NCBI GenBank assembly: GCA_012295275.1
Contig: CM022675.1
Span: 11,656,001-11,720,000 of the forward strand
DNA: 64,000 nucleotides
Direction of reading: 5' to 3'
DNA from: Chrysomallon squamiferum
Taxonomy: Eukaryota > Animalia > Mollusca
The stretch's first letter is position 1. Every line of letters starts with the position of its first letter. Both the position numbers and the translations under genes were made by a program. The notes under the pieces are model-generated. The model was not told the DNA's origin and did not search any database. It was given only the letters and a program-made list of their open reading frames with translations. Below, one piece after another: positions 17,406 to 42,966 of the stretch.

Positions 17406-17473
17406 TTTTGCATACACAAATATTATTTAATGCACAAAATTATTAAATATATTATATAAGAAATCCTGCAGAG

Positions 17474-17757: not shown

Positions 17758-17802
17758 AGATTATCTGGACTGAGTATTTGTTTACGATGTGGTCAAACTG
17801 AC

Positions 17803-18175: not shown

Positions 18176-18210
<35 letters not shown>

Positions 18211-19112
18211 TACTGATAATTTTTAATAATAAAGATAAAAAACAAAAATAATAAAATTAATACTAATACTTTTTAATAATAATAAAAAGAAAAAGTCAGC
18301 AACTATCACCCCAAAAATGCAATTACATAAAAAGTAAATAAAAATAAATAAACCTATATTTATCATTAAAATGCTAATACATCACAATTAATTGATTAGG
18401 AAGTAAAAATGCAATACAAATCTATTACCTACCTCAAATCACATTTGTATCAATGTAATTTATAAAGTAATGATTATATTTTATAATCATTAAAACAACA
18501 CCTATACACAAATTTAATGTTTGCATTCAAATTTATATGTTAAATTTACCACTGCATTTAACCTTTGTATTTTTATATACATGTTAAATAATAGTAATTA
18601 TAATTATATTTGACTTTAAAAAAAATATATATTATTCAAAAAAATTACATTAATAGTAATAAAAATAACAAAATTAATAAAAAGCATGCAATTAAATAAA
18701 ACCAATCTACAGTACAAATAATAAAGTTCACACTATTGTATATTTTCACAACATTACCATCTTTAAGTCAAATTTCAAAAATAAATGACACAAAAATTAA
18801 AAGGAAAATCAAAGGTATCAGTGTTTCTATCATAATGAAAGTACCATGAAAATTAAAATTTAATACTGCCACAGCTACTAATAAAAAAAAGAGAAACAAA
18901 AATAAAATAAAATAAAAAAGAAATGCCATAAACCACAACACAAACTGAAAAGACTAAACAGGGACAAGGATTAAACCAAAAGAAAACAAATGAAAAAAAA
19001 AATAAGAAAAAAGTTGAACAGAAAATTCCAGGGTTGATAACTCCATGCATGAAGTGAAATAACTCTATACTAGAAAACGGGAGATAACCCATGCATCTGA
19101 CAACACCAATAC

Positions 19113-19265
19113 CTGGGGAAATGTCGGTCTGGAGGTTCATGGGTTCGCTTGAAGATTTGGGCAGTTTTTTGGAAGAAACTGCTAATGTTTTAGGTCTGTT
19201 AAATTTCCGAGAGAATGAGGAAAAGCCACCAATGCCCTGGTTTGCTCGTTTGTTAGTTATGTTAG
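19113..19265 (-). CDS. TBC1D5: TBC1D5 coding exon
   Basis: ggcag|CT AAC...CCA G|gtattg; (A)NITNKRANQGIGGFSSFSRKFNRPKTLAVSSKKLPKSSSEPMNLQTDISP; phase 1-1. Confidence 0.83.
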
Positions 19266-20431
19266 CTGCCGGGAAGAAAGTGGTTCACTTGTCAGGCCAG
19301 TTATACTTTCCAGTCAAAAGTCTTCATTATATTATTTCTTACATACAACAACCTAATCCTCAATGCCAAGCAAAAATTATTTCGATTTCTTTATTATTAT
19401 TATTTTTTTTTCCTTAATATTTTTACAAAAAGCCCTCACCAAGTTAATCATTTTCTCCATCTGTAGGTTTGTATTTTATTATTATTTTTATATATGTGTA
19501 CCACAGTCCTAGGAAATTTATTTTTTTAGAAATTAAAATTATTTTTATTTCTGTTTTCTTGTTTAACAATTTTGTTTTGTAAAAGTTCATCTGACAATTT
19601 TCACACAAAGGATTTTAACGTATTATCACACATTATTTACAAGGCTTTCAAAATTATTCAAAATTTTAAAAATTGTTTTTTTTTTAACAAAACAAGATCA
19701 TAATTTTCATCCAAAATGTTTTAATAAATTATTATATATTTCAGATGTAATGCAGAAATCCAATTCATTTCAGTATCTTTCTAAAATTTTTAAATAATTT
19801 TTACAGAACAAAAATCATAATTTTCACCCCAAATGTTTTAATAAATTATTATCATTTCTAATGTGGAATTACTTATACATTTATTTGAATACCTTTCTGA
19901 AAGATTTCATTAGAATATTACTTAATGCAAAAACCTTATGTAACTTTTATTTTCACCTTCTTGCTAAAAATTCAACAAGTTATATATCCTCTCTGGTCTT
20001 AATCTTTGAGTGAGTTTTAAAATTAAATTCTGTTAGTACATGTGTTAATTTATACAGTATTATCTTTCCATACATATGTGTCAAAAACAACAAACTTTAC
20101 ATTTATATTCATTCTACTGGGATGGAACAAAAGGATTTTTTAGCATTTTTCAATACATGGCTTTTGATACGTGATTTCATTTCACATGGGACTGAACCAA
20201 AAGACAAATATAAATATTCTGAATGGTGAACTCATCACATATATGTGTTTAACAAATCTATATACAAATATCTAAATGTTGGTTTTTGAATTTCACTTTA
20301 AAAAATGCTATGCACATTTGTTCCAGTCCAATACATAGAAGAATGGGTCTAAACATTTCATTGTTAATTCTTATTTGTCACAAATGTATTTTATTTACCT
20401 GCGTGTATACAGGTATATAAATCTTTCTTAC

Positions 20432-20507
20432 CTTTGTTGTTTTTGGATCTGTTCATTGCAGGTTGATTCACTGTGGTGTAGGTGTACTTAGGAGGTTTTG
20501 GATATTG
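20432..20507 (-). CDS. TBC1D5: TBC1D5 coding exon
   Basis: tgacag|CAA TAT CCA...AAA G|gtaaga; QYPKPPKYTYTTVNQPAMNRSKNNK; phase 0-1. Confidence 0.85.
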
Positions 20508-21183
20508 CTGTCAAAATAAACACAGTAATTTTTACCCTGATCATGATTCAAAAGTTTCATTTATAACATAAGATTATATAGCATAAATCTTGAAAAATAT
20601 TAATAATAGTGTATCATCAAATAGGAATAATCAACAGTAGCAACTAAACAATAACAATAATAATAATAATAATAAAAATAAGAAGAAGAAGAAGAAGAAG
20701 AAGAAATATTAGTTGTTGTAGTAATAATAATAATAATAAAAAGAAAATAATAATAATATTAAAAGTAACTGTAATAATAAGAATTAAATAACAATAAAAT
20801 TAACACAAAAAACCACTAACAGTAATAGTAATAATAATAAGAAGTAATAATAATATTAATAATAATAAAAGTAAAACTAACAAAACTAACAAAAATATCA
20901 ACAATAATAATAAAAATAGTTGTAGTAGTAGTGGTAGTGGTAGAAGTTGTAGTTGTTTCAGTAACAGAACAGTAGTAATTGTAGTAATATTAGTAATAGT
21001 AAAAGCAGTAGTTGCAATAACAGCTACAGTAATGATAATAATGACGATGATCAAAAGGAAACGTTATTTTATTCACATACTTTATTATTAACAAAGGCTG
21101 AACCCTAGCACCAGACTAACCAATGACTAGGATGTATACAGAATGTTCTGAGGGTGTTTGTCTGTATTTAACACAGTACTCAC

Positions 21184-21290
21184 GTTTGGCTCTCTCAGGT
21201 AAAGAGCTTGTTCTACAAAGTAATGAACGTCACCAACAGGTGGAAATTTCATAAGACAGCCCAGACAGGACACATAATCACTGGCTAACA
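21184..21290 (-). CDS. TBC1D5: TBC1D5 coding exon (end of TBC domain)
   Basis: tttcag|TG TTA GCC...CCA AAC|gtgagt; LASDYVSCLGCLMKFPPVGDVHYFVEQALYLREPN. Confidence 0.93.
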
Positions 21291-21412
21291 CTGAAATAAA
21301 TAAATAAATAAGTAAATAAATAAATAAATAACCTAATTAATAAATAAATAAATAAATAAGTAAATAAGTAAATAAGTAAATAAGTAAATAAATAAATAAA
21401 TAAGTAAATAAG

Positions 21413-21443
<31 letters not shown>

Positions 21444-21838
21444 CCTAATTAATAAATAAATACATTTATTTCACAAATATGATAAACATATTAAAAACAA
21501 TTACAATAAATAAAATGAAACATTAATTGAATAAATATATAGATAGATAACCTAAATAGATAAAATAAACTGAATAACAAAAATAATTAAAGAATATAAA
21601 AACAGAAACAGACAGACATGTGAGTTTGACATCGTTTCTATTTATTTATTTCATTCATAAAATGTTTTGTTTTCTTAATTTTCTATTAAAAATGTTTTTT
21701 TTTTTTTAAATTGTTACATTTATATATAAAACGAAGAAAAAAAAAAATTATAAAAGTGATAAAATAAAATTGTCCAGATAAAATAAGTTAAAGATTCACA
21801 CTCATCAATATATGAAAAGAAAGTGATAAAAATATTTA

Positions 21839-21871
<33 letters not shown>

Positions 21872-21923
21872 CAATGTAAAAAGAAAAATAATAATAATAA
21901 TAATAAAAATAATAACAGTAACA

Positions 21924-21958
<35 letters not shown>

Positions 21959-22158
21959 CATAGTTTAATAATAATAAAAACATTAATAGTGTTAATATTC
22001 AATTAAAAAATAAAAATAATAATAATAAAAATAATAACAGTAACAATAATAATAATAATAATAATAGTAACAGTAATAATAATAATAATGATTATAATAA
22101 CAATAATAATAATAAAGTAATAATAATAACAGTAACAGTAATATAAAACTGCACTAAC

Positions 22159-22306
22159 AGACATCACGGATGTACAGCAGCATTTGACAACAAAGATGTA
22201 GTTTCTGAGATCAAAACCAATTCCATCTCTTCCAAAATAGCTGTCCCACATAGCAAGCAGATCCTGCATGGGAAACTGTTTACCAAAGAGAAGCCTGACC
22301 CAGCCG
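22159..22306 (-). CDS. TBC1D5: TBC1D5 coding exon (TBC domain), with several apparent sequence errors
   Basis: WVRLLFGKQFPMQDLLAMWD...DGIGFDL..YIFV, then MLLYIRDV in another frame; donor T|gttagt present, acceptor garbled. Confidence 0.85.
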
Positions 22307-22378
22307 AAAAACACATTTAAACACACTTTGCAATTCATTACTTGTGTATTTATCATCAAAATCATTAATATTAAACTC

Positions 22379-22429
<51 letters not shown>

Positions 22430-22595
22430 ATCAAAGAGTACCTTCCCCCCTCAAACACTCAAAATTACTTTTTTTTAAATAGATAATTTTTTAAAATGTC
22501 TATCTTATAAAGGCAAACAGAAAAATTATATATTTTTTTAAAATATTCATTTTTTTCAACCTTCATTCCTACATTATTCATTCCTTCATCCATCC

Positions 22596-22767
22596 TTCCC
22601 ATAGACTTGAGGAGGTGCAATGTCCAGTCTCTCAAGATGCTGATGAAGTTGGGTCAAACTTCTTCAGGATGTAATCCTGTATCCTGGTCAGTTTAGCCAC
22701 AATGACATTGGAAGGATTCAGATCTTGTGGACGGGGAAAATGGTTGAGAGGATACCAGACCAGATGG
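22596..22767 (-). CDS. TBC1D5: TBC1D5 coding exon (TBC domain), with several apparent sequence errors
   Basis: cttcag|CCA TCT GGT; PF.RPQDLNPSNVIVAKLTRIQDYILKKFDP, then LHQHLERLDIAPPQVYG in a shifted frame; donor garbled. Confidence 0.85.
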
Positions 22768-23432
22768 CTGAAGATAAAATAAATAAATAAAAAAATAAAT
22801 AAAAAATAAATAAATAAATAAATAAATAAATAAAAATAAACAAACAAAAATAAATAAATAAAACAAACAAATAAATAGTAAAATAAAATAATAAGAAGAT
22901 AAAAAATAAAAATGTAAAATGTGAAAATAAAAAAAATACTAAATAAATAAATAAATAAATAAATAAAAATACATAAATAAAATAAAAAAATAATATTAAA
23001 AAAAAAATAAATAAAAAAAAAATAAATTTAAAAAAAAAAATAAAAAATAAAAAAATCAAAATAACAACTTAAACTGTTAAAAAAAATAAATAAATAAACA
23101 ATCTGATATACAAATATATTTATATTTTTAAAAAAAAAAAAGAAAAAAATGAAAAGATCAACAAAATAAATAGATAAAATTGAAATGGGGTATAAACAAA
23201 TTATATTTTATATAAACATTTTCTCTGTTATTGAATTATTTCAAATAATGTTTTAGGTGTAATTCATTTTAGATAAATATTTTCTCTGTTATTACACAAT
23301 TTCAAACACACCCATACATAAATACACACACACACACACTAACACATTGTTCATATAATAACAAAAATATATAATTTCATATTAATCTTGTTACAAATGA
23401 AATTTTAAAAAAAAAGAAACTTATTATTTTAC

Positions 23433-23502
23433 CTTTGGAATATCAATTTCTTTAGCCATATACCACGGTTCCACAGTTTCCATAACTTTACAAAACATAG
23501 CA
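23433..23502 (-). CDS. TBC1D5: TBC1D5 coding exon
   Basis: tttcag|T GCT ATG...CCA AAG|gtaaaa; (Y)AMFCKVMETVEPWYMAKEIDIPK; phase 2-0. Confidence 0.92.
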
Positions 23503-23519
23503 CTGAAATAAAAATATCA

Positions 23520-23537
23520 TTTTTTAGTTAAAAAAGC

Positions 23538-23618
<81 letters not shown>
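23520..23618. repeat. (GA)n microsatellite filling most of a 162-nt intron
   Basis: Directly visible; reads as a (TC)n pyrimidine tract on the transcribed strand. Confidence 0.95.
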
Positions 23619-23619
<1 letters not shown>

Positions 23620-23664
23620 CTAGAATTTTCATACTGCAGATTTTAGATGGTTTCAAACACTTAC

Positions 23665-23715
23665 TATGCATCTGATTCAAGGTATTTGGGGTCCATGATT
23701 ACTTTAACAATTTCT
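23665..23715 (-). CDS. TBC1D5: TBC1D5 coding exon
   Basis: ttcag|A GAA ATT...GCA TA|gtaagt; EIVKVIMDPKYLESDA(Y); phase 2-2. Confidence 0.92.
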
Positions 23716-23855
23716 CTGAAAATTACAAAAGAAATAATTAATGAACAGCTTACATCAAAAACAAAAATCAGACAAACAAACCTTCCCCATACAAAAAAAA
23801 ATTATAAATTAAAAATGAATTAAAATGATATATAAATACAAATACAAATAATACA

Positions 23856-23909
<54 letters not shown>

Positions 23910-24523
23910 TTTCAAAATCATCTTATCATTTGCTAAAAATCAAGATACAACTATGTTACCTATATAAATTATCAAATTATTTCCCCTTAACATAAATTGC
24001 AAAAAAGTATTATCTCCCTTATTTTAAGTAAAGTCGGCAGAAAATTTAAGTCTCACTAAAAATGATACCACTGGCTGGTGAAATGCATTATTTTTATTAC
24101 ACATCTAAGTATCTGATTAGACAAAAGAGAAACAGTTTGATTATTTAAGCATGCTAAGGCTTAAAAGCTGATCACAGAAAATACATACTCCTGGTGTTTA
24201 AGTAGACATTACAACTGGTTTTAGAGAAAATAGTATAATGTTCAAGTAACAGCCAGTTTGTTAATTAGTTAACAATTATTATAACATATTATGTATATTA
24301 TAAGTGTGCAAACTTCTGACTATTAATTTTGTTCAAGACAGTTCAGTACAGAGATTTGAAATTTAAACAGAAATGCTGTTTTTTGAAAACAGTTAACATG
24401 ATAGTAAACCTGCACCAGAATAATTGTTTAACAGAACTTGATACAAATAAAATAAAATTAGAGATACTGCTTGTTTTGAAAAAAAATAAAAAAAAATAAA
24501 ATAATAATAATAAAATTAAATAT

Positions 24524-24575
<52 letters not shown>

Positions 24576-24888
24576 AATAAAATAATAAATAAATAAATAA
24601 ATAAAAAAATTAAAAAATAAAATGCAAGAAAATAATGATTTTTTTTTCTGTATCATTTTATTAATTTACTGTTTTGTATTTTGATATATTGTGAAATAAT
24701 AAAAAAAGTATTTAAATAAATAAAACCTTTTTTTTTTCTTTTCTTTATTTCTTTTATTTCATTATTTTATTATTAAATTATAGCATCACAGTTCAGTTTA
24801 AGGAGAAAATAAAAGATAATAAAAATAAATTTAAAATTAAATATGAATGTTCATGCATAATACATGCTCACTCATGCAAATTCCTCTT

Positions 24889-24939
<51 letters not shown>

Positions 24940-25204
24940 AAGAGAGTTCTGTGGAAGTTATGAAAAGATAACTCTAAACTATGTGCTCTGTACTAGTACC
25001 ACAATGTAAATAATTGAAACATTTCAATACAAACTGCAAAAATATCTGATATTGATAAATACTAGATTTAACAATAATAAATTATAGTTTACATATATCA
25101 GTGGATAATAAAATAAATACAAAATAGATCAATAATAATAATAAAATAATAATAATAATAAAATAACAGAATCAATAATAATAATAATAAAATAAAATAA
25201 ATAA

Positions 25205-25243
<39 letters not shown>

Positions 25244-25783
25244 ACCTTTAACTAATTAAATAAAAATAATAGTGAAAAACAGGAAAAAAAAAAACATTAT
25301 TTAAATTAACATTAATTTTTGTCTGTATCAATAAATAATTAAATAAACAAAAATACAAGTAAACAAACAAAGAAATAGCTCATCTAACAAACATATAATA
25401 TAAGTTAACAAAAAAAAAAAAAAATAAATAAAAAAAATAATTAAAATTTATTAAAAACACAGTGAATTTCTAAGATTATGAGTGCAAATAACTTCTATAA
25501 AGGCCTAAGTATCAAAATTCTTATTTAGTTCAACTGATTGTTTTTTTGGCTTTTTTTTTTTTTTTTTTGTAAATTATTTATTATTTTTTTCATTCCCACA
25601 TAAAACTCAGTGAATATAAATAAGCAGTTAACACCAAATGAGAAAAGACAGCATGCAGAGCAGAAACAAGTTTTAAACTTAAACTTTGTAACAAACCTGT
25701 GTTTGGGGGAAATAGGTCTGAAAATATATACAACAGACAAAACTACAAACACTGAGTGAAAAACCAGAAATAACAATTGTACA

Positions 25784-25816
<33 letters not shown>

Positions 25817-25901
25817 AAATAAATAAATAAATAAATAAATAGATAAAAAAGTTAATAAATATAATAATAAAATCAGTAAAAGTAGAAGAAAAAGGAAATA
25901 A

Positions 25902-25918
25902 AGAAGAAGAAGAAGAAG

Positions 25919-25984
<66 letters not shown>

Positions 25985-25985
25985 A
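25902..25985. repeat. (GAA)n(CAA)n compound microsatellite
   Basis: Directly visible. Confidence 0.9.
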
Positions 25986-26308
25986 ATAGTGGACAATAAT
26001 AGAAAAAATAGTTACAAATAATAATTTGGAAACAAATACAAAAATAAAAATAAAATAAAACAAAAACCTAAAGATAAATAAAATAAAAAAACATAATATT
26101 ATATAAAATTTAATATATATATAAAATATAAAAATATGTGAAATAAACAAACAAATAAATAAATAAATAATAAAAAAAAAAATAAATAAATAAATTTAAT
26201 TTTCCTGCACGCTAGTCAAAATCCAATAATTATAAGCTGGCTCATAATGGATTTTCTTTGACATGCATAAATTTTATATTTTTAAATTTTATACCTGGCC
26301 TTTCCTTT

Positions 26309-26359
<51 letters not shown>

Positions 26360-26671
26360 TTTGTTTGTTTGATTTTTAATCAACATACAGATTAGTTATT
26401 GAGTGTTTTTCAATAAGAATTTCTATTTATTTTTTTTATTTTTTTTAAAGATGAAAAAGTATAAAATAAAATGAACTCTAAATATTATGAATACTGTATT
26501 TCAAAACTGTCTATCAATATAGCTGTTTTGTTTGTTTATGCAACAGTGACGAACATACATTAAGAATTCCCAAAATTATTTAAATAAATAAAATTAAATT
26601 ATGTGACATAACATAAAATGGATTAAATTTTTTTTAATAATAATAGTAGTAGCACTAATAAAGCTATTCAA

Positions 26672-26713
<42 letters not shown>

Positions 26714-27295
26714 TGCAACAAAACTAATAAAAACAAAGATATAGTTATAATTATATAAAATTGATCTTCATATTTTATTTCAAACCTGTTACTGACAAAA
26801 TATTTATCACAAGTAACAGAGCAAAAATTCTCAGATTAAATATATTTAAAAAAAGGAGAAAAAAAAAAGAAAAAGAAAAACATGAAAAAACATCAAAACA
26901 ACATAAACTAGCTTTGTAATAATATTTCCACCTTGTGTTTTACACATATGACATACACACACACAAACACACAAAAATATACACAACATGTACACAAAAC
27001 ATACATATATATAATACTTATGTTAACAGACATACTCAACATACATATATAAAATAATTATGTAACAGACATACACTCAATATATACACTCAATATACAT
27101 TATATACACAATACTTACATTAAAAAAAGCAAACAAATACGTAAAACATAAAAACATACACACTCAAAACACATCCATGTATACAGATACTTACATAACA
27201 CCTACAGACACACACACACATACCTACACACACACAAACACACAGACAGACACACACACACACACACACAGACACACAGACAGACAAACACTTAC

Positions 27296-27384
27296 TGTAG
27301 TGTGTCCACTTCTGAAGCATGTAGGAAAGCTTGATGGTCGCAGTGAAGAACGAAAATGAGAGGAGCCAAAAGTTCGTGCATTCC
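27296..27384 (-). CDS. TBC1D5: TBC1D5 coding exon (after the Q-finger)
   Basis: tcccag|GGA ATG CAC...CTA CA|gtaagt; GMHELLAPLIFVLHCDHQAFLHASEVDTL; phase 0-2. Confidence 0.95.
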
Positions 27385-27389
27385 CTGGG

Positions 27390-27725
27390 AAAATATTTTT
27401 TTAAATTTCAATTTTATTTTATTATCACATAGAATAACACACATGAATTTCTTTTATAATACCTCTAAAATAACATTCGACATTTTTTATTTTGAAAATG
27501 TTTGTAAAAATATTTTTTTAATTTCACTCTTTTTTAAAAATTATCATATAGAATAATGTATCTGATTTTTTTTTTTTATAATATCTCTAAGTTTTGTTAA
27601 AAACATTTTTAAAAAGTTTATTTGGAAAATGTTAAATAAAATATTTTTAATATTTTACTTTGTTTTATTATCATATAGAATAATGTGCCTGATTTCTTTT
27701 ATATTATGTCTAAGTTTTGTTAAAA
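27390..27725. repeat. Degenerate ~120-bp tandem triplication abutting a splice acceptor
   Basis: 'aaaatatttttt...ttatca(c/t)atagaataa...tctaa' occurs three times, near 27390, 27507 and 27638. Confidence 0.7.
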
Positions 27726-29118
27726 GCATTAATCTTTTATTTAAATTGAGAGGGGAAAGAATAAAGACTTCTTAAAATTAAAATAAAAAAAATTAAAATT
27801 AAAATTAAAATTAAAATTAAAATTAAATAAAATTAATATTAAATAATAATGTTTCCTAGAAACAAAGTTTAAAAAAAAGAAAAAGAAACCCCAAAATCCC
27901 TTTTGGAGATTATAAAGATTCGGAATAATCAGTTTTATAGGTCAGAAATCAGTTTAAAAAAAAACAAATTTAATTGGTATATTGTAATACATTTTTATAG
28001 CTGAAATCTTTAAGTACCAAAAGTAGTGTACAGATCAGTATACAAACATATATACTTGTATTTTATTGTCCATTTTCTGTATATACACAGAACAATATAC
28101 AAAAAGTTGAATGAAGAAATAAAAAAATACTTTTAAAATGTATGTGTCTGTGTGCATGCATACATCAACACTATTATGCAGAGTACATATGTAACAATAT
28201 AAACATGCATATCATACGTAAATCAATCAATTAACACAAGCAGAGATACTGAATTTAGACAACATAGACAGACAGACAGACACATATAGGGAAAGACAGA
28301 TATTGCTATTGCTCATTTTCATTGAAATCACCTTTGCATATTTGTTGATATTTGGTTATGTTTTATTTTTCCAATTCTAAAACATGACTCATTTATTCTT
28401 ACCACCATTTTAACATGTTCACCATTATGTTTGCATTTATTTTAATATGTTTATGACCATGTTTTTTTTTGGTTTGCTTTTTTATTTTAGTTTATTAGTT
28501 TACTTTGTAAAGCACCCTTGAACTTACTTAGTATGGAAAGGATGTTGTATAAATAATAAACAACTGCCAAGGTCATTTTGGTTTCCCAGTTCATTGAAAT
28601 AACAATGATAAATTATATAAATGTATATTCTGAGTATATTAAAAATACTTCATTTACTGATGCATATTGCATTAATAATAAGGATATTAATAAAACTAAA
28701 TATATAATAATGTTTATTTAAAAAAATTTTGCCTGATGAAATATTTTTATTCTTAGTATCATTATATAGATGAAAATTAATAATAAATTAATAAAACTTC
28801 TGAGTATAATAATAAAATTTTATTTTTGCAGTTAAAAATAAAAATGTAATTTGATCCAGTGAAAGATATTTACCCTAACTGTATGTATAAAAAATAATAC
28901 CTATAAAAAGAAAAGTAATAAAACTATATATGCACAACAATAAAATTCATTATCCATGGTTTCATTTTAAAAATAAAAATAATTTCATCTAATGAAAGAT
29001 ATTGACAATTGACCTTGATTTTTTTTTTTTTTAATGTAATAAAATTAATATTTAGCCATTTGATAAATCTATATTTATTATAAAGTTATTAACTGCACAT
29101 AAAATAGTAACTTTTTAT

Positions 29119-29149
<31 letters not shown>

Positions 29150-29604
29150 ATGTTTGTGTGTGTGTTTGGCCAATATTATTCTAGGCAATGAAAACTAGTA
29201 TTTAAAAGAACTACATATATAATAAAGTTTCTTATGTCTAGTTAAATATAATTCAAAATTCTGTCCAGTGATTTTTTGATTTTGTCCCAAACAAATCTAC
29301 TGAAACAAAATGCCAATTTACATGTTTAAATTTGGCCTGTGTCATTCCAAGGAACATAATTCAAATTAGAATTTAAATCAGAAGCAGATTGGCAGATTCA
29401 CTGTTAAATGATTCAAACATAAAACCTAATATTAAGTCATCATTTTTGAAGAGTGGTTGTTTAAAAAAAAAAAAAAATCTGTTTGAAAAACCAATGTGAG
29501 AAAACAAAACTACGACAACAAGTGTTAAGAGCCACACAGACAGACAGAACAGAAAGACACACACACAGCCAGACAGAGCATGGTGACATCACTTATAGAC
29601 TGAC

Positions 29605-29707
29605 CTGTTTGTACGAAACAGTTGAATCTGAACGACAAAAGCAAAACAACACATCAAGCATCATTTCTTGTAACCGTGGCGACTTGAAAAACTCAAGCTC
29701 AGGAAAA
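29605..29707 (-). CDS. TBC1D5: TBC1D5 mutually exclusive exon, variant 2 (Q-finger exon)
   Basis: actgcag|T TTT CCT GAG...TAC AAA CAG|gtcagt; 103 nt, phase 2-0; FPELEFFKSPRLQEMMLDVLFCFCRSDSTVSYKQ. Confidence 0.9.
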
Positions 29708-30391
29708 CTGCAGTCGAACAAAGCAGAAACTCAACAGAGGAAAATAAATAAATTTAAAAGAAAAAAAAAGTCATGCTAATACATCTAAAAAATAAAATAT
29801 ACTGAACAAAAAATATGAAGGTTCATGAAATATTTGATCACATTGTTTTTGATAAGCAGATATTTTAAAGACTCTGCCAGTTAAATATATGATGGATGAC
29901 CAATAAAAAATTATATTTATTTTTATTTCAGTCATTCATACAAGTTATTGATGTTTAGTATGCAATAATACATTATGACCCTTAACTTGTTTTGCTCAGT
30001 ATAAGACATACAGTGAAAAGCTACAGGATATCACAGAAAAATTATAAATTAGATATACACAAACAATTTATTTAATAATAAACAAAAAAAAAACAACTAA
30101 TAAGTAATAAATAAGTAAAAGGTACTAATTTAAAATCGGTACCCATCATAGAAATAATAGAAAGATACAATTTCAATAGAAAAAATAAATAAATGAAAAT
30201 TAAAGATGGCCACAGGACAAGAAAAATCTACAAAAAGGAAAACTGTATCAAAAAAGTCAAAAAAATAAAAATAAAATAAAAATTAAATGAATAAATTACA
30301 GAGGTGAAAACCAGTCTGCTACAAAAGAAACATATTCAGGCAAACACACATGCGTCTGCTAGGAGAGTTTCTGATCTAGTGTAGTCTCTAC

Positions 30392-30494
30392 CTGCTGGTA
30401 AGAAAGCTCAGGGTAGAGTTTTGCATAGATAAAGAGAATGTCCACCATCAAATTTCTCAGCTGATTTGACTGAAAGAATTCTATTTTGGGGTAG
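30392..30494 (-). CDS. TBC1D5: TBC1D5 mutually exclusive exon, variant 1 (Q-finger exon)
   Basis: atttcag|C TAC CCC AAA...TAC CAG CAG|gtagag; 103 nt, phase 2-0; YPKIEFFQSNQLRNLMVDILFIYAKLYPELSYQQ. Confidence 0.88.
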
Positions 30495-31087
30495 CTGAAA
30501 TACAACCAGATTATAGGTAATATATAAAAAAAAAAAAAAAAATTAAAAAAATTAAAAATAAAAATGTTCTGCAAAATGTTCCTGGAGACAAATATAAACC
30601 CACAGCCTGGAATAAAAGAAATGCTGAAACATTATAAATTAGTCATATTCTGAAAAAAAAAGAAGAAAAAAAAAGAGGAAAAAAATATTTATATGTTAAT
30701 GATTATTTAAAAAAAAAAATATCTCTTGACATTTGCAGTATGATCATTCTGTGTCAATTTACCCAACAGTTTTAATCATTCCAATTAAAATTTTGATAAA
30801 AACTGGTTTCAAACTCCAAAACATCAAATTTTTTACTCTTTCAAAATGTGAATTTTTTTTATTCAAAATGGCCGCAACCACCAATTCTTATCCACCAAAG
30901 TCTTAGCAACAGACAATCCATCTTCATAATATTTCACATAAGACAAACAAACCAAATTAACCATTTCCCTCCTCAAAAACACCAAAACAATTATCATAAC
31001 CGTGTATTATAATAAATCATAACTTCATGAAAATTTTAATAAAATTCTAAATTTAAGTAATCCAAAAAACGATCATCAAAAACTTAC

Positions 31088-31155
31088 GTTCTAATAACAT
31101 CTTGTTTAATTGTGAGTCGTAGTTCATTGTCCTGAAAGAATTTGTTCCATGGACT
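31088..31155 (-). CDS. TBC1D5: TBC1D5 coding exon (arginine finger IxxDxxR)
   Basis: ttcag|AGT CCA TGG...AGA AC|gtaagt; SPWNKFFQDNELRLTIKQDVIR(T); phase 0-2. Confidence 0.95.
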
Positions 31156-31683
31156 CTGAAAACAAAAATTAAATATATATATACATAAATTTATAAACAT
31201 ATCACTACCCTATCTCTATCTGTCTGTATAAACTAGTAATGAGGTTCAACAAAATTTGGCATGTTGACAAGTATGGTACAAAGCCAACAGAACAACTGAT
31301 GTCAGTTTGAACAAATAATTTAATTAAAAATACACTCAACTCTTCATTTAATGAACCCCTATTTCAGATAATAAGGACAAATAGATACAAATACAGATTC
31401 AATAATTATACATACCCTTATAGTAAATCAAAATGTTAGCTGTGGTAGTAATCATGTATGGTCTTAATTCATTTTTGTAAGTTGAAATAAGACTGAATTT
31501 TATTACCATCATAGCTAAAACTTAATTTATTACAAGAGTATGTGAAATTTAACACATTTCTATTAAGTCTGGTTAACTGTTAACATCTTAAAACAGCCAC
31601 AAACATGTTTAAATGTATTAATTAATGACAAAGCTTATTTGATAACAGACAATTAACCCTTGGTGTTCTAAAGCATGGATTAC

Positions 31684-31758
31684 CTCATCATCTTGAGAGA
31701 GAGGGTTGTTTAAAGAGATGTCTACTTGATCAACAGCCTTGCGAGGGTTGACAATCAA
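31684..31758 (-). CDS. TBC1D5: TBC1D5 coding exon (Ins1 loop, VPS29-binding NNPL)
   Basis: tttcag|TTG ATT...GAT GAG|gtaatc; LIVNPRKAVDQVDISLNNPLSQDDE. Confidence 0.94.
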
Positions 31759-31984
31759 CTGAAAAACAAAAACTTAGATGATATCAATGAAGTAAAAATG
31801 ATAGTCAGTATTAGTTGTGACTTTTTAAGTAACGAAATTAAATAAAAATCTAAAAAAAATCGAATGTTATTAAAGATTTTTTAATAAAAATTTATGTTAA
31901 CTTGAAGGTAATTATATAATATCTCAGCAACAGGTAAAAATGAATAAATAAATGAATAAATAAATGAATGAATAAATTAATGAA

Positions 31985-32015
<31 letters not shown>

Positions 32016-32195
32016 AAATAAATAAATAAATATTTAAATAAATAAACTGATGAACACGTAGACAGACAGACAAGTAAATAAAATGATAGACAAATATAAA
32101 TAAACAAACAAACAGATAAATACAAATAATTTAAAACCTAAAGATAACTTGCAACCAATCACTACCATAAAAAACAGCAGTAATAATAATAGCTT

Positions 32196-32268
<73 letters not shown>

Positions 32269-32412
32269 TAACAATAACAATAATAATAATAATTAAATAA
32301 AAAAACAAAAAAAAAAAATTAATTTAATAAATAATACACTGAGAAGATATGAACCCAGGATCTATTACACTTCAACACAGAATTCTTCTCGTTTATGACA
32401 ACAAAAGGTTAC

Positions 32413-32502
32413 CCTGTTCTTCAAATCTTCATACTTGTTCCTCCATACTTGACATCTTGACTCCCAGAGGTCAAGGTCAGCTGGTAAGACATCGAGGTAA
32501 AT
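32413..32502 (-). CDS. TBC1D5: TBC1D5 coding exon
   Basis: ttacag|ATT TAC CTC...AAC AGG|gtaacc; IYLDVLPADLDLWESRCQVWRNKYEDLKNR. Confidence 0.92.
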
Positions 32503-32734
32503 CTGTAATTGAAAATAATCACATACTCAAGACACAGATGAATTTCAGATACAAATTTGTTTTTTTAACAGAACAGGGAAAATGTTGCATAAAGACAAAC
32601 TGAATTTAAAGTAAAGTGACTTCTGCATGTTATTCTACTTTGCTGATATTAATATTTGTGCCATTTTGAACAGTCACTGGAAAATCTGGACTTTTCATTT
32701 GCCCCCTTTTCAGTCTGTTAGAGTGAGGACTGAC

Positions 32735-32802
<68 letters not shown>

Positions 32803-32804
32803 AA

Positions 32805-32838
<34 letters not shown>

Positions 32839-33216
32839 TTATGAACCTCCACAAATAATAATAATATATAAAAATAAAAAAAAATCATTTTTATTCTCAT
32901 TTCATAAATTAGTTTTCAGAAAGATAAATATGATGATAACAAAAAAACCCTAGACAATTACTTCATTTTTTTCAATACACATGTGGATTTATAACATATA
33001 AATATTTGGCTGCAAGTTGTTATCAGTGAATGAATATTTGCTCATTGATAATTCTAACAAGTAACAGCTGTTAACTAAGTGACTGAATGAATCATAATAT
33101 GCTATTGATTCTAACTGATGTGTTACTTCAGACTTGGCTGTCCTAATGAAATATTTTATCAGGTCTGTCATCTGTTATTACTAGAAGCTATTTACCAGCA
33201 ATATATCCATGCATAT

Positions 33217-33258
<42 letters not shown>

Positions 33259-33518
33259 CACTCTTCACTATGTGTGTGTAAATATATATATTTATTTATT
33301 TATTATTATTTTTTTTAATTATTTTTACATTTTTATTGATTATAAATCCCTCTTTCTTTACACAGTAACTCATACATGAATGATACATATTATGGCACTT
33401 ACAAATGAATATAATATCATTTATATTACAAGTTATATGACCCTTTTCACATATGAATATCTATCTATCTATCTACCATCTATCTATCTGTCATATATAT
33501 ATATATATACGACAGATA

Positions 33519-33524
<6 letters not shown>

Positions 33525-33609
<85 letters not shown>

Positions 33610-33960
33610 GATATTCAAACACAATCTACAGTTATGATTATATCTATATATTCACGAACACACACACACACACAGACACACACACACACACACATACACA
33701 GAAGGAAAGACACACACACAGACACACACACACACACAAGGACACACACACACAAGGACACACACACACACACACTCACAAACACACACACATACACACA
33801 CACAGACAGACACACACAGACACACACACACACACACACACACACACAAGGACACACACACACACTCACAAACACACATAGACACACACACATACACACA
33901 CAAACAAACACACACACAGACACACACACAGACATACACACACAGGCAGACAGACAGACA
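33525..33960. repeat. (GA)n followed by a long imperfect (CA)n tract
   Basis: Directly visible; runs up to the donor at 33967. Confidence 0.9.
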
Positions 33961-33967
33961 AACTCAC

Positions 33968-34076
33968 CTTCCACACTACACTTCTGAAGCGACTACTTCG
34001 TAAGCGACCTGCAGTCCCATGGTCCTTCAGCTTGCTCTTGTAGTTAGGTGTGACAAACAGCCTCTCCCACTCTGAG
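33968..34076 (-). CDS. TBC1D5: TBC1D5 coding exon (LIR1-like EWERL and start of TBC domain)
   Basis: gtgcag|C TCA GAG TGG...TGG AAG|gtgagt; SEWERLFVTPNYKSKLKDHGTAGRLRSSRFRSVVWK; phase 2-0. Confidence 0.94.
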
Positions 34077-34763
34077 CTGCACCAAGAGACAAAAATATTC
34101 TCATAACAACAGTCTTATGTAACTTATTTCTGTTAATTACATATCTTAGCTTCATAAGAGACAGCATTTCAGATGAGAATACAAAAGACTTATTCTAACA
34201 TGCAGTAAAAGAAATATTCTTAGTAGAATGATAGCAGAGATTTTTTTTTTTTTTTAATTGAAATTTTTCAGTTAAATTATCCTGTTGAACTTCAATTTAT
34301 TTATTTATTTATTGTTATTATTATTATTTTTTATTATTTATTTATTTAGTGACTGTTGACTAGTTAAAAAATAAAAAATAAATTAAAAAAAAATATTTCT
34401 GCCATTGTTACAGTATTTTGAATTATTATGAACATCTAATTAAATGTAAGCTTAAAATATTTTTTCTAACTTTATTTTCTAACAACTATTAATAATGTAT
34501 ATATAATAAGGAAGATTTAATGCAGTTATGAATACTTTCACCTTAATTATTATTATTATTATTTAGTACTAGTAGCAGTGGTGGTAGTAATAGTAGTAGT
34601 AGTGGTAGTAGTAGCAGTAGCACTATATTATTTCAATAATCATTAATTAAATAAAATAATAAATAAATGATTTTAATTATAATATTATTAACAAAACTAC
34701 TGTGGTAATTATTCTAATAATAATGATGAGGATTGAAACAATAATTGTTTTAATACTGATGAA

Positions 34764-34828
<65 letters not shown>

Positions 34829-34932
34829 TAATAACAATAACAATAATAATAATAACAATAATAATAATAATAATAATAACAATTATAACAATAATAATAA
34901 TAATAAAAAATAATAATAATAATAATAATAAT
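34764..34932. repeat. (TAA)n/(CAA) microsatellite
   Basis: Directly visible. Confidence 0.9.
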
Positions 34933-35016
34933 TTTTAAAAATAGTAATAACAAAAAATAAATAATAAATAATTTTAAAAATAGTAATAATAAATAATCAC
35001 ATAAACAATAAATAAA

Positions 35017-35047
<31 letters not shown>

Positions 35048-35384
35048 TAACAATAAAAAAAACATTATTTATGTAACTACATCAAGTTAAGTTTCTGTAG
35101 GACATGAATTTATATTTTTTTACTGCTCATATCTGTAGTTTTATTTTACAGAAGAGATTTAAAGACCCGAATGAAATGTCTTTATTATCATGTGTATTAC
35201 CATGGTAATATTTTATTCATTTATATTGTGAGCTGTAGTAATTCATGTGAAAACAATTACTTCTAATATTAAATTTCAGATGTGATATGATTCAATTATA
35301 AAATGAAAAAAATAATAATATTTGACATTTTAAACCATTATTTGTTTTATTAGAAGAAGAGAAAGAGACAGCATGAGGAAGAAG

Positions 35385-35456
<72 letters not shown>

Positions 35457-36318
35457 ACAAGACAGAAAATGAAAAACTAAAGAAAAAAGAAAACAGAAAA
35501 AAGTATCATCTACAAAATCTGAAATTCTAAATGTTCTGACATATAAACTATTTTCTAAAAAAATATTTTCAAAAAATAAAAAAAATAAAGAAGAAAGCAT
35601 CACAATAGGGAACATAATTTATCTATTACAACAACAGACAAACCTCAAATGAAAATTTTTTTAAACAAATGGTAGAAAAAAAACATTTCTAATATTTCTT
35701 ATAATAATGATAACAATAATAACAATAATAATGCAATAATAAAGAATATGACAAAAGTGTATGTTATTAATTTAAGAATATTTGTTTAGTAATGTTTAGT
35801 CAACATAATATTAACAATTATTACAAACATATATATTTTCATTTTCTATATTACATTACTTGAAAGATGAATTACATCCTGCCTTTGTAATGGCTACTTT
35901 TATATCTTAGCAATAGAAGTTCTTCCACACATACCTTCCCACAGAATGGAAAACACAAAGGACTTATAATGAAAAGTAATAGAGCACTGGTTGGACTGGG
36001 AAATAATAAAACTGGTGCAGTGAAGAGATTTGAGCTTTCACACCATATTCTTATACTCCAACCAACCACTGAGCCATTTATGTAAAATATATGAATCATC
36101 AAACTTGTTTAAACGTGTTTTTAAATATGACAGATTAAGTTTTGTTGAATTATTTAGTAGTTCACTGAGGAAACTGTCAACTGAAGTTAAAATAAATAAT
36201 TTACAATAAATTACAAATGGAAAAAAAAATATGGTAAAGTCTTAAAATTGAAAAATTGAATTAGACACCATAACCAAAACCAATAGTGTTTTAGTTTTAC
36301 ATTCAGATTTAATAAGAC

Positions 36319-36419
<101 letters not shown>

Positions 36420-37544
36420 AAATATAAAATGATAAAATTAAACAGATAAAATAAAATTCTAAACAAATCAAATTTTAAACAAATCAAATTTTAAAAATTA
36501 AAATCAAAAAAAGATAAAAGAACAACAACAAAAAAAATATTTTTAAATTAATTTAAGACAAACAAAAAAATATTAAATTAAATCATCTCAAAAAAAAAAA
36601 ATCAAATATGACAAAACTGTTTAAGCAAATGGGATTTCTAAAATCAATATGTGTCAGCAAAATGTAAATAAAGAATAAAATGAAAAGTGAGTAGGTGAGT
36701 AGTGATAAGCTATGAACTAAGATTTATAATTCAACAAGGATAGATGTGGGAGAGAGAATATTCATGGAATTACAGAACCAATTACAGGAAATCTCTCTCT
36801 GTTGACAGAAATATTGAAAACTGCAGATTTCGTTGTCAAAATGCAAATGGCCTCCAATCTCCAGACACTAATAATAATTATATTCAGTTACTTGGTTGCC
36901 ATAGCGTTCCACAACATCAGAATTGGTTTATTAACTTTCATTATAGCAATATTTTCTGTAATGTGTATAGAATATTTATTTATTTATTTTTTTATTTTAT
37001 TTATTTTATTAATTTTTTTCTTTTTGTGAATAGAAAAGAAAAAATTCAAAAAGTAAAATAAATAAATAAATAATATAAAAAACACAGAAGTAAAAAAATT
37101 TAAAAAAAAATAATTATAAAAAAAAAAAAAACAACAGGAAATGTTGAATATTAATTTTTCTAAACACTTTTAATGCTTTTCGCGTCTCTGATTTATCAAA
37201 CGTGATTTAGTTGACAGGAAACAGACATGGAGCGCGCTCAGTGAAAAGGACATTTTTACAAATAATATTGTATTTATCTCGTCATTTCTTCTCTTCCGTT
37301 CACCATTGATTTTATAACATTTCTTGATTTTCTTGGTGTTTTTTTTTTTTTTTTTATAAATCTTGTTTTTGTCTTACAAAATGGCAGCTGAAAACTTAAT
37401 CACATGTTCACAAATAAATTGATATAAAAACATATTCAAACAGAGTAACATACATACACTAGCAAATAAAACTGTGAAATAATATCAGAAATTATTTTTC
37501 TTTTTTGATTTCTTTTAATAATCAGATAATTAGAAATTATTGTA

Positions 37545-37576
<32 letters not shown>

Positions 37577-38222
37577 TGACACCAACAAACATATAAGCAC
37601 TTGTAAACACAATAACATTTTGAAATTAATTTTTTTTCATTTTTTTTTTTTTAAATCAGATTGTTGCACATGCACCTACTAGCACAAACACACAGAAAAC
37701 ACAGAAAACATTTTAACCCTTAAAAATATGCAGAAATACATGTGCGAAAAGCTTTGTGTGTATTAGTGAATTTATCTACATTTGATTACATACATAGAAA
37801 CATACATATAAATTTTATGTCTTTGAAGTACATGAAAATATTATATACGTGCATCTTTATGTATGTAAGTATATAAGTGCATTTGTATGTGTACATGTGA
37901 ATATAATAATATATATATATACACAGTAGCATAAGCTGGTTTATTTCATAGGGTGTGCACATGGAATGTCACTCATTAATAATGCAGCTATCTGCACTGT
38001 GTCAAATCATGATATAACTTAGCTGTGACATGTACAGTGCTATCTCTGGGCAACTGAAGCAGTGTTTTACAATATGTATATATATAAAATATAGATAAGG
38101 GAGGTGGGGGTATGATATATTCAACATATTACCTATATTTAGCACCATCTATTATCACTCTCCACTCCCAGTCACACAATTCTGAATACTTAGATTGGCT
38201 GAAACATGCCCCAGAAATAATA

Positions 38223-38257
<35 letters not shown>

Positions 38258-38712
38258 ATTAGTGAAAAATTAAAATAAATAAAAAAAAAATAACAATATG
38301 GTCTATTCTGCAGATTCAACATAGTTAATACACATTTATTACTTAATACTGTGATTTTTCAGTAAAAACATTGCAAAGCTATGACAGATTTTTTGATGCT
38401 GTATGCAGGATTTTCTTTTTCTCTTTCACAGCAGTGCAACACAAGTAGGTGCCCAGAGAGCATATATTTGTGTGGAGACAAATAAATCATATAGCCAAAT
38501 GCTTATTCAGAAAGATTCAGACACTGTTAAATGTATTCTGACAAGTAATTTATCAAAGCAAAATGGTTCCAGCCAAAGAAGCTACATTTTATTATACATG
38601 TGTCTGTGTCTGTGTGTGTATGTCTGTGTATGTGTATTTGTGTGTGTGTGTGTGTGTGTGTCTGTGTTTGTATGTCTGTGTGTGTGTGTGTGTGTGTGTG
38701 TCTCTGTGTGTA

Positions 38713-38751
<39 letters not shown>

Positions 38752-40273
38752 AACTATTTTTGCCTTGATAAATGACTTGTTATTTAGAAATATATATTGT
38801 TTAAAGTCATTTCTTTCATATACAAGTGCTGGTTTTTTTCATAGAAAAAATAACAAATACATTGTTGCTAGGTAAAAACTATTTTGCTTTTGATACAACA
38901 TGACAATGAAATCAATATGTGTGAACTTGTTGCTCTTAAGAGTGGTCCACAGAGAAACAAAACAGTTAATTTTTTGTTTTATTTAGGACTGCAGGATAAA
39001 AGGAATAACTACTTAGTGTCTTAAGATATCAGTTTTATTCTGCTCAGATTAAATGGCAACTGCAACTCGTCAAAGCCTCGCTTCTTATGCAATTCTCATA
39101 TTCAGATAAATAAATAGATCAATCTATCTATCTATCTATCTATCTATATATATATATATATATATAAGAATAGCATAAGCATATGTATGATGTTTTATTG
39201 ACATTAATATGGTAATGCTTATGTTCCCTCCCATTTCCATGACTGTGCTTGTCTTGTTTTTGAAAATATTATTTTACACAGAAAACCCCTACTAATCTGT
39301 TATTATTTTACTTTTATGAACAAATCATGAATTAATCTGCATTACCAACTTTCAAGTTAACACTGGAAATGTAAAGAAATAGCATTAGTTTTATACAGAA
39401 GTAATTGAAATTATAATTATATATATATTTTTTTTAATTGTAATTAAATGTAAAAAAAAAACCAAAACTGATAATGCTCTGTTTGAAGATACTGAATTCA
39501 TGTGGAATTAAAATAATTTTGTTATTTTCTGTATAAACAAGCAAAAAAAAAAAAAAAAAAAAACCCCAACAAATTTTTCAAATATAACCAACTTAGAAAA
39601 AGCTATTTATAAATGATTATTTATTAATAAGAAAAGACTGCATCTGGCAACATATAATTATATTGAAAAAAAAAAAAAAATCAAGAAGAGTTTGAATACT
39701 GAAACATCTATTTTAGTTAACTAGAAAGAACTATTTATAAACATGTAACTTCAGCTGAATGCACATAATTATTTAATAAGAGGAATATCTAAAGGCTGAT
39801 GTTGAAAATTAAGATGATGCACATGTGGAATCAAGACAGAAATTGGATTTGATTTCACTAAAGATGTGCATTATACAAAATCAATTATTAAAATTGCATG
39901 CTGTTAAATTAATAATAATCTGATAATAATGATTCAGTAAATGCCTTAAAAATGATATTAACAACAACAACGACAAATAATAATAATAATAATTATTATT
40001 ATTATTATTATTATCATTATTATTAGTATAACATCAAAATAATACTAGCATTACCACCACTACCAACAATTCAAAAAATTCAAATAATAAAACAACTACT
40101 ACTGCAACTCGTACAACTACAACAAGGACCTCTATTCACCTTCAACCACTACAAACACAACTACAATTAAAAACGCGTCTACAACTACAAACGCCACTGC
40201 AATTGTAATCACTTTGACAACTACAACCACCACCACTACTACTACAGCAACAACTACAACAACAACAACCAAC

Positions 40274-40397
40274 CTGTAGGAGCTGGAGAAGCTTGCACTG
40301 GGGGATTCGTCAAGCAGCATGTCCCATCGGCCGTGTACACTCTCCTCACTCAGCTGCGACTTCAAGTTGTTGTTGTTTTCTGCCCCCTGATGACTCC
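40274..40397 (-). CDS. TBC1D5: TBC1D5 N-terminal coding exon
   Basis: atttcag|GG AGT CAT...TAC AG|gttggt; (G)SHQGAENNNNLKSQLSEESVHGRWDMLLDESPSASFSSSY; phase 1-2 matches both neighbours. Confidence 0.85.
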
Positions 40398-40403
40398 CTG
40401 AAA

Positions 40404-40960
40404 TTGAAAACAGTCACCCATATTATTAACCTCATTGGGAATAATAAAAATAGTCACCCATAATTAACCTCCTTGGGAATCAAAAAAAGTTGCCCATAAT
40501 TAACCTCCTTGGGAATGAAAAACAGTCACCCAAATTAACCTCCTTGGAAATCAAAAATAGTCACCCAACTTAACATCACTGGATATCAAAAATTGACTGG
40601 ATATCAAAAATAGTCACCCAAATTAACCTCCTTGGGAATGAAAAATAGTCACCCAAATTAACATCCTTGGAAATCAAAAATAGTCACCCAACTTAACATC
40701 ACTGGATATCAAAAATAGTCACCCAACTTAACATCACTGGATATCAAAAATAGTCACCCATAATTAACCTCCTTGGATAGAAAAAAATAGTCACCCAAAT
40801 AATTAAATGACTTCACCCAAAAACCTCCTTGGGAAAAAAATAGTCACCCATAATTAACATCCTTGGAAATCAAAAAAAAACAGTCACCCCTAAATTAACA
40901 TCCATGATATCAAAAATAGTCACCCATAAAAATTAAACCAAAAAGGTCACCCAAATTAAG
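40404..40960. repeat. ~35-bp tandem minisatellite (about 16 copies) resembling the adjacent splice acceptor
   Basis: Unit aaaaatagtcacccaaattaacctccttgggaatc; 'gtcaccc' recurs about every 35 bp. Confidence 0.9.
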
Positions 40961-41469
40961 ATTCTAGATAGCACTTTGAATTATTATTAGTACTATTTTT
41001 TTAAAAGTTGCCTAAATTAATCTTCTAGATAGTTCAGAGAAATTTAAAAAGTTGCCCAAATTACCTGCAGCAGAAATACCACAGAAAGCCAGAAAATGTG
41101 AACAGAAATCAATCAAACGTACGTGTAGTGTAATATAAAGATATCAATAATAATGATGTAACAATGACAACAGCAGTAGCAGCAGCAGCAGCAATACTAA
41201 TAATGGTAATAATAAACAATAGCAGAAGGAGTGGTTGAGGTTGTAATAATAAAAATACAACTACTACTACTATTACTACTATTACTACTACTACAATTAC
41301 TACTACTGCTACTGCTGCTACTACTAATAATAATAACCAATATCAGAGGTACTTATTGTAGTAGTAGTAGTAATAAAAGAAAATACTAATACAACTACTA
41401 TTACTACTAGTACTACTACTACTAATAATAATAATAAATACTATCTGTGGTTGTGGTACTAGTTATGCC

Positions 41470-41503
<34 letters not shown>

Positions 41504-42966
41504 TAAGTAGTAGTAGTAGTACTAGTTATAACAGTAGTGGTAATAACAACCTAACAGTTAAAAGAATAACAACAACATACTGATATTGTAAAAGCAACCA
41601 TGATACTATTAATAGCAACAAAATAACGATAATAAAGATAAATTATGTACGGTTTAATATGAATTTAATAGCTTCAGTTTTAAAATCTATTACACGGTCA
41701 TTAAATGTGTGTTATTCAGTCAATTAATGTCAGTTTTTATTTCCTCAATCAGGTTTACTGTTTACAGAGAACTGTATATGTCAACAAGTTTCAATTAACA
41801 TGAGAGATAAAAACTTTTTAATCTCAGAATATAAAAAAAATAAAAAAAAAAAAAAATAAGAAGAAAAAAATGTATTAATGAAATATCTTTGTGTCCGTTT
41901 TTTTTTGCATATAATATAAAAAGCAAAACCATTTTCAGTATTTATATAAAAGCATATTAATATAATATCTTTTAATGCTACCTATTTCTACACACATATA
42001 CATACACAGAGGCACACACACACACATCTATATATATATATATATATATATAATACATATAAACATATAAACAGAGAGACAGACAGACAGACAGACATCA
42101 ACATATTAATGTAATATCTATTTCTTTTTCAGTCAGATATGAAAGGTAATCTTTACATAACATGTAATATCAACTGTGTATCTTTTAGGGGTTTTTTTTT
42201 TTGGGGGGTCGAAGATGAAAAAGATTTTTTGATTTCGACATAAAATCATGACAAACGAATCTATCATAACATCACCGTCACATAAATAATAATAAATGCA
42301 CCAAACACTGGAAGATGAAAATCCATAGCCAACTTGTTAGAGAATTGCCAGCAATCAATTGTGAGCATACATGTCCAATTATAGCTGCAACTCATTAGGG
42401 CCTTTGATGTTTCTGTTAATGGGAACAGAAAATGTTTGATATTCTCAATGAGACACATCTCTGTATAAACAAGCCTTTCGTGAAAGAAATTTACTATTAA
42501 TATGACAACTTGTCTTGGTTAGAAATTGTCCATATGATGCCATGAAGTTAATTTATTTTCATCAGACATAATATACCACTAGAAATAAAAACTTCTAAAT
42601 GAAGCTAAATCAACAAGCTGCTGCTACTACTACAACCATTATTATTATTAATACTACTGCTACTACAACAATGACCATTACCACTGTTACTGCTATTACT
42701 GCTGATGCAACAACGAATACACCTACAACTAACACAATTACTACTACTACAACCACTATTAATACTAATATTACTACTCACTTCTGCTACGTCTACCACA
42801 ACTATTACAACTACAACTACCACAACTGCCACTACTACTAAAACAATTACTGTCATCTTAGTACTATAAGTATAACTACCAGCATAATACAAAATTGTTT
42901 CCAAAATTAGTACAACAATCATCAGATAATGACAAAGATGAAAACTACCACTACCACCTACTACTA

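Follow-up and report, generated by a model that had tools for sequence, protein, structure and literature searches.

Tandem, very probably mutually exclusive exons encode the segment between the catalytic fingers of TBC1D5 in a snail and other lophotrochozoans

Introduction

Why does a snail gene for TBC1D5 carry, side by side, two versions of the exon that connects the catalytic fingers of its RabGAP domain, and what would change in the enzyme if one version were exchanged for the other? TBC1D5 turns off Rab7, so timing the release of retromer from endosomes, and the catalytic elements of a TBC domain are an IxxDxxR arginine finger and a YxQ glutamine finger. How TBC domains choose and pace their Rab is poorly resolved. 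An exon pair of this kind amounts to a ready-made chimera experiment, with natural domains that are alike except for 34 residues between the catalytic fingers. The pair was described in an earlier note on a 64,000-nucleotide stretch of the Chrysomallon squamiferum genome (the whole of this stretch is called the window below), which proposed that the two exons are mutually exclusive and swap the Q-finger segment of the catalytic domain, giving isoforms that may differ in Rab preference, kinetics or tissue use.

The exon pair and its gene

The TBC1D5 coding span as a whole was placed by tblastn at 14020..43203 on the minus strand of the window, with the core of the gene at 27-32 kb, and the closest named protein among those retrieved was that of the snail Gigantopelta aegis. 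The encoded protein has a TBC domain with both IxxDxxR and YxQ fingers, as well as the VPS29-binding Ins1 (NPL) motif. This insertion, a hallmark of TBC1D5, is encoded by a shared exon at 31684..31758 (minus) that contains NNPLSQ and matches the 5GTU peptide. Human TBC1D5, C. elegans RBG-3 and yeast Gyp6, all retromer-bound Rab7 GAPs, have the same TBC fold, NNPLSQ, IxxDxxR, YxQ and the His of GMHE. By orthology alone, the window protein may be taken to act as a GAP for Rab7.

Four exons of the minus strand make up the region of interest. The upstream shared exon (31088..31155, 68 nt) ends in IKQDVIRT, the arginine-finger motif, and has a strong GTAAGT donor. It is followed by exon A (30392..30494), an intron of 684 nt (29708..30391) and exon B (29605..29707), and then by the downstream shared exon (27296..27384, 89 nt), which begins with GMHELLAP and whose His matches human H207. 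Exons A and B are both 103 nt long and of phase 2-0, are preceded by AG and followed by GT, and are open as one base plus 34 codons, in agreement with the coordinates and sequence given before. In exon A, the loop past the arginine finger leads into a 17-residue helix and then the YxQ loop, and exon position 3 is Lys; exon B encodes the equivalent segment, with Glu at this position. As the earlier note had it, the exon directly follows IKQDVIRT and supplies YxQ. A or B alone is enough to carry the frame from the IKQDVIRT exon into the GMHELLAP exon. The claim that including both or neither breaks the frame was also borne out, with a stop at the third codon of B when A and B are joined in one transcript, and a frame shift when both are skipped.

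The two exons are identical at 13 of 34 residues and 49 of 103 nucleotides. By codon position, the identities number 14, 24 and 11 of 34 for the first, second and third position, respectively, and such a concentration at position 2 with little at position 3 is the pattern expected of an old coding duplication. As a control for chance similarity, we collected the open 103-nt AG..GT stretches of the same phase on the minus strand of the window (n = 31), and the remaining 29 of these matched A or B at no more than 7 of 34 residues. A third copy of the exon was not found in the window. Each exon has its own counterpart in other snails, exon A with 31 of 34 residues identical to A of Haliotis and exon B with 26 of 34 identical to B of Gigantopelta. 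For this species, four RNA runs contained 7-15% of the sequence words sampled. We regard it as very probable that the two exons are genuinely used in a mutually exclusive way.

Both versions in other animals

Searching with exon A gave nine proteins, of which eight are named TBC1D5 of molluscs; cluster members and the results of a wider search were then sorted by segment. A homologue search with exon B and its flanks gave no match, and B orthologues were reached through the cluster members. A sequence search of the PDB with each 34-mer likewise gave 0 matches. Among 63 named taxa, both versions were present in 22, A alone in 8 and B alone in 33. Gastropods, bivalves and three Octopus species are among the 22, together with the chiton Liolophura, the brachiopod Lingula and the nemertean Lineus. 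All 22 are represented by isoform pairs, with the exception of Elysia crispata (one read-through model) and Bradybaena (two gene models at separate places). Of 18 isoform pairs chosen from 12 species, 17 differed solely inside the segment. Of 189 proteins that span both flanks, 127 carried B, 61 carried A, one carried both and none carried neither. The sole protein with both is the Elysia gene model, which reads through A, the intron and B, in the order A then B.

The isoform records of NCBI are database models in which read support is not visible. For both types, unbroken proteins of 500-820 residues were also found on assembled contigs of 1.8-3.7 kb (A: P0046; B: for example P0068 and P0094), and unbroken proteins of this length on such short contigs point to spliced mRNA in other animals. 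Exon A was not seen in any retrieved record of the 33 B-only taxa, among them 5 Patella and 7 Tubulanus records, and may be lost or rarely expressed there. The named annelid proteins (Capitella, Owenia and Lamellibrachia, with one model each) were B-type. Annotations with a single model keep one exon, so the other is easily overlooked. Both forms are present in Aplysia, Octopus, Biomphalaria and oysters, which offer workable systems.

Some records showed further variation. In Bradybaena similaris, the A-type and B-type proteins (P0042 and P0085) stem from different contigs, where they are annotated as separate genes; perhaps one exon was retained by each paralogue, or perhaps one was picked per locus in annotation. 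An optional insert of 10 residues occurs directly past the arginine finger in Biomphalaria and Physella (in Physella it can precede A or B), and a 10-residue insert of different sequence precedes A in Octopus (insert proteins overall: P0008, P0121, P0179, P0071 and P0162). The insert resembles a micro-exon of 30 nt placed at the active site; positions 31087-30495 of the window gave no match to it. Two Haliotis isoforms (P0004 versus P0003) differ by an optional insert of 7 residues just before the VPS29-binding insertion, for which no convincing 21-nt exon was found at 32409-31759 of the window.

Genomic loci in metagenome contigs

We searched metagenome contigs with a profile of 13 exon A peptides, covering 51 of the 64 parts of the collection, and found at least 41 loci. 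Intron-containing animal loci accounted for 29 of these, and exon A had canonical splice sites in all 29. Exon B lay downstream of A in 21 of the 29, always in the order A then B. It was present before the GMHE exon in all nine loci that reach this exon, and in the eight loci without B the GMHE exon was absent too. The lophotrochozoan signature RLT(I/V)KQDVIRT was found in loci L002-L029 wherever the corresponding exon was present. The other 12 of the 41 loci were weaker matches to distant TBC genes, in which the segment has no second copy. One locus, L025, has a very divergent downstream exon (positions 1960-2061) in which Phe replaces the Tyr of YxQ; it is possibly a decaying or re-duplicated copy.

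In the window assembly itself, indels break the frame of two downstream exons and some exon fragments are repeated, which would fit a pair that is an assembly artefact or has one silent exon in this snail. We consider this highly improbable: A and B each match their own orthologue class with frames and sites intact, and the order A then B recurs in the 21 other loci.

Origin and age of the duplication

In a tree of 94 segments (34 columns), all 31 A sequences fell on one side of a branch with support of 100/98, in a bootstrap that had not settled, and were joined there only by the downstream exon of L025, on a long branch. The B sequences intermixed with the single exons of chordates, hemichordates and a tick. 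No second version was found in any of 46 isoform records from amphioxus, hemichordates, sea urchin, fishes and ticks, and in these single-version proteins position 3 is always acidic, as opposed to basic in A. Among 1.84 billion representatives, 22 matched an A profile at E ≤ 1e-10, followed by a gap in score; one was a repeat artefact and the rest were A-type.

The simplest reading of these sequences is one duplication before molluscs, brachiopods and nemerteans diverged, a split that is Cambrian or earlier. On the same comparisons, A appears as the extra copy and B as the type of the single exon in deuterostomes and the tick. I/V22, K25 and P28 of A are also the commonest residues in 66 distant single-copy segments, a likeness to the non-bilaterian motif by which a duplication older than Lophotrochozoa, with A lost elsewhere, is conceivable.

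Selection on the two exons

We estimated dN/dS by the Nei-Gojobori method with a codon bootstrap on 13 distinct related loci with both exons (of 16 distinct), leaving out three more distant loci and the window; the 78 pairs are not independent. The values were 0.26 (0.14-0.41) for B and 0.007 (0-0.02) for A, the latter biased downward because the loci were found via A and the group was set by the first nine residues of A. No stop was found in 30 genomic copies of A or in 22 of B. Across 18 species, A reached a mean identity of 81% and B one of 53%, with 89-95% in the flanking exons, and A was the better conserved of the two in 169 of 171 species pairs. Both exons are under purifying selection. 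The pair is asymmetric by these measures, with A almost frozen and B a freer copy of the ancestral type. The earlier suggestion of an old duplication kept by selection is borne out by these dN/dS values, by the many taxa that have both versions and by the branch that separates A. Stops or a dN/dS near 1, named there as grounds for abandoning it, were absent.

The lower conservation of B could also mean that A is the main working form and B a relaxed, drifting spare, in line with altered B copies such as that of L025, those of L003 and L005, which lack Phe1, and those with insertions in Octopus and Lingula. This seems improbable to us, as B has a dN/dS interval below 1 and no stops, is the more frequent version among the 189 proteins and the sole one in 33 taxa, and groups with the single exon of other bilaterians.

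The swapped segment in the protein

Both isoforms scored above the Pfam cut-off for RabGAP-TBC (PF00566). A first fold, built with 44 sequences, was discarded with a pLDDT of about 45 in the exon. The model used was that of the A-type Haliotis protein, built with 90 sequences, with a pLDDT of 95-98 over the exon; it aligned with Gyp1p (2G77) over 303 residues with a Z-score of 31.2 and an rmsd of 3.1. In this A-type model, the exon covers the loop past the arginine finger, a short helix, a 17-residue helix (positions 10-26) and the loop that ends in YxQ. The Gln of YxQ is present in 100% of A and 100% of B sequences, and the Tyr in 100% of A and 98% of B. Since both residues are kept in both exons, catalysis itself is not swapped. 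The earlier claim that the pair swaps the catalytic Q-finger segment holds for the segment, YxQ included, but not for the catalytic residues, which are the same. The swapped part is the scaffold between both fingers, not the chemistry.

Fixed differences between A and B are Tyr versus Phe at position 1 and Lys or Arg versus Glu at position 3; in addition, A has Ile at position 22 where B has mostly Cys, and Lys at position 25 where B has mostly Arg. Position 3, which lies four residues past the arginine finger, is basic (K/R) in all 31 distinct A sequences and acidic (E/D) in 53 of 53 B sequences, 8 of 8 outgroup sequences and 63 of 66 contiguous eukaryote segments. Overall, A is more positive in charge than B in 35 of 44 pairs. 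Counted back from H207, the human equivalent of the exon is residues 171-204, with E173 at position 3. Human H207 is reported to be an interfacial pH sensor near both fingers (PMC13369854). Its equivalent sits three residues beyond the end of the swapped exon, in the shared downstream exon. The pair joins three features: one copy nearly unchanged across phyla, a fixed charge reversal, and an end three residues before the reported pH-sensing His.

The reading we favour, and think somewhat more probable than its competitors taken together, is that one copy is spliced in at a time to give two TBC1D5 enzymes with the same fingers, B general and A specialised. B would be the ancestral, general Rab7 GAP segment. 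A would be a duplicate in a tightly constrained role, probably restricted to certain cell types, with a predicted change in strength or in partner binding. Next to the arginine finger, its Tyr1, Lys/Arg3 (in place of Glu), Arg13, Val17, Ile22 and Lys25 could form a surface under constraint, which would adjust the activity towards Rab7 or contact a partner not required by B.

A different account, which we regard as possible though doubtful, accepts a true switch with isoforms that act alike on Rab7, the helix of A being conserved for a non-Rab partner, dimerisation or localisation. Exon positions 10-26 form one helix in the model, and R13, V17, F21 and K25, invariant in A, recur along it every four residues. 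In the Gyp1p-Rab33 structure, this helix is said to be mainly scaffold and the YxQ loop the contact, which would favour such an account. The TBC domain of TBC1D5 has also been modelled as an NHE6-bound dimer (PMC13369854). However, A and B differ most sharply in the charge reversal at position 3, which falls in the loop right past the arginine finger, and the loop before YxQ differs too. The known retromer-binding insertions, given as residues 127-153 and 263-293 in PMC5105194, fall outside the swapped exon. The available part of a preprint on Gyp6 (10.64898/2026.01.23.701266) held no interface detail for the segment, and the literature on TBC-Rab interface residues yielded nothing useful for it.

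We think it unlikely that exon A alters which Rab is inactivated, or the response to pH. If it did, splicing of one gene would switch the target of a retromer-bound GAP, and a natural 34-residue swap kept since the Cambrian would show where TBC domains encode Rab specificity.

How exclusive splicing could be kept

The A-B intron measures 684 nt in the window and 212-1368 nt in the 21 loci, which seems too long for simple steric exclusion. Conserved RNA pairing was not found within 150 nt of the splice sites (60 region pairs in 6 loci); 7 of the 60 region pairs had z of about -2 or lower, and no type of pairing did so in more than two loci. When A and B are joined, a stop falls within B in 20 of the 21 loci, which makes nonsense-mediated decay a likely safeguard. 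Transcripts with both exons or with neither are out of frame and would be removed in this way, and regulated exon choice would act on top of decay.

Counts of intron motifs gave no clear regulator. For the Rbfox-type motif (T)GCATG, the window has one GCATG about 38 nt past A, but the density downstream of A (1.8/kb) was close to that upstream of B (2.1/kb), so a role for it is not supported. In the loci, the acceptor of A is poor in T (T fraction 0.34 versus 0.64), a feature absent from the window (0.50 versus 0.45). The intronic donors of A and B are weak, with about 1 of 4 consensus matches, which may merely reflect strong CAG exon ends.

Relation to known exon pairs

The pair belongs to a known type, tandem-duplicated mutually exclusive exons, and this limits the surprise. 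As in the human and Drosophila sets of PMC9741552 and PMC8373072, the exons are homologous neighbours of equal phase, old and under selection, with one copy very probably used at a time and one stretch changed in an otherwise identical protein. In contrast to those sets, the TBC1D5 pair was seen in lophotrochozoans only and sits in a RabGAP catalytic domain. RAB6A/RAB6A' (PMC8373072 supplement) is also a swap of homologous exons in Rab trafficking machinery, but it lies in the GTPase and is dated to vertebrates, whereas the TBC1D5 swap lies in the GAP and is common to several phyla. The Ca-alpha1T/cca-1 pair described in PMC9741552 is likewise a very old invertebrate pair, shared by protostomes with molluscs among them and absent from chordates; it differs in belonging to an ion channel and in being shared with arthropods and nematodes, the TBC1D5 pair not having been seen outside Lophotrochozoa.

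No such pair is known to have been described for TBC1D5. We found no description of it in the full-text literature under TBC1D5, mollusc/Lophotrochozoa, oyster, TBC-domain or Drosophila exon duplication, a scope that excludes subscription journals and Drosophila catalogues. TBC1D5 had 0 matches in the supplements of PMC8373072 and PMC5740500, and "TBC" had 0 matches in the main text of PMC9741552. The isoforms themselves are present, unremarked, in NCBI annotations.

Other features of the window

Two downstream TBC exons of the gene, at 22739-22598 and 22302-22186 on the minus strand, have broken frames relative to homologues; the breaks are probably assembly indels and not signs of a pseudogene. 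The end of one C-terminal exon, ASKLDIHIGKL, repeats several times in a downstream tandem repeat (16454-15783, minus). On the plus strand, an open stretch of 314 codons rich in Pro, Gln and Ser (2586-3527) is likely an exon of a neighbouring gene. Near-identical open stretches at 59103-58756 and 57937-57599 on the minus strand, about 1.2 kb apart, form a local direct repeat.
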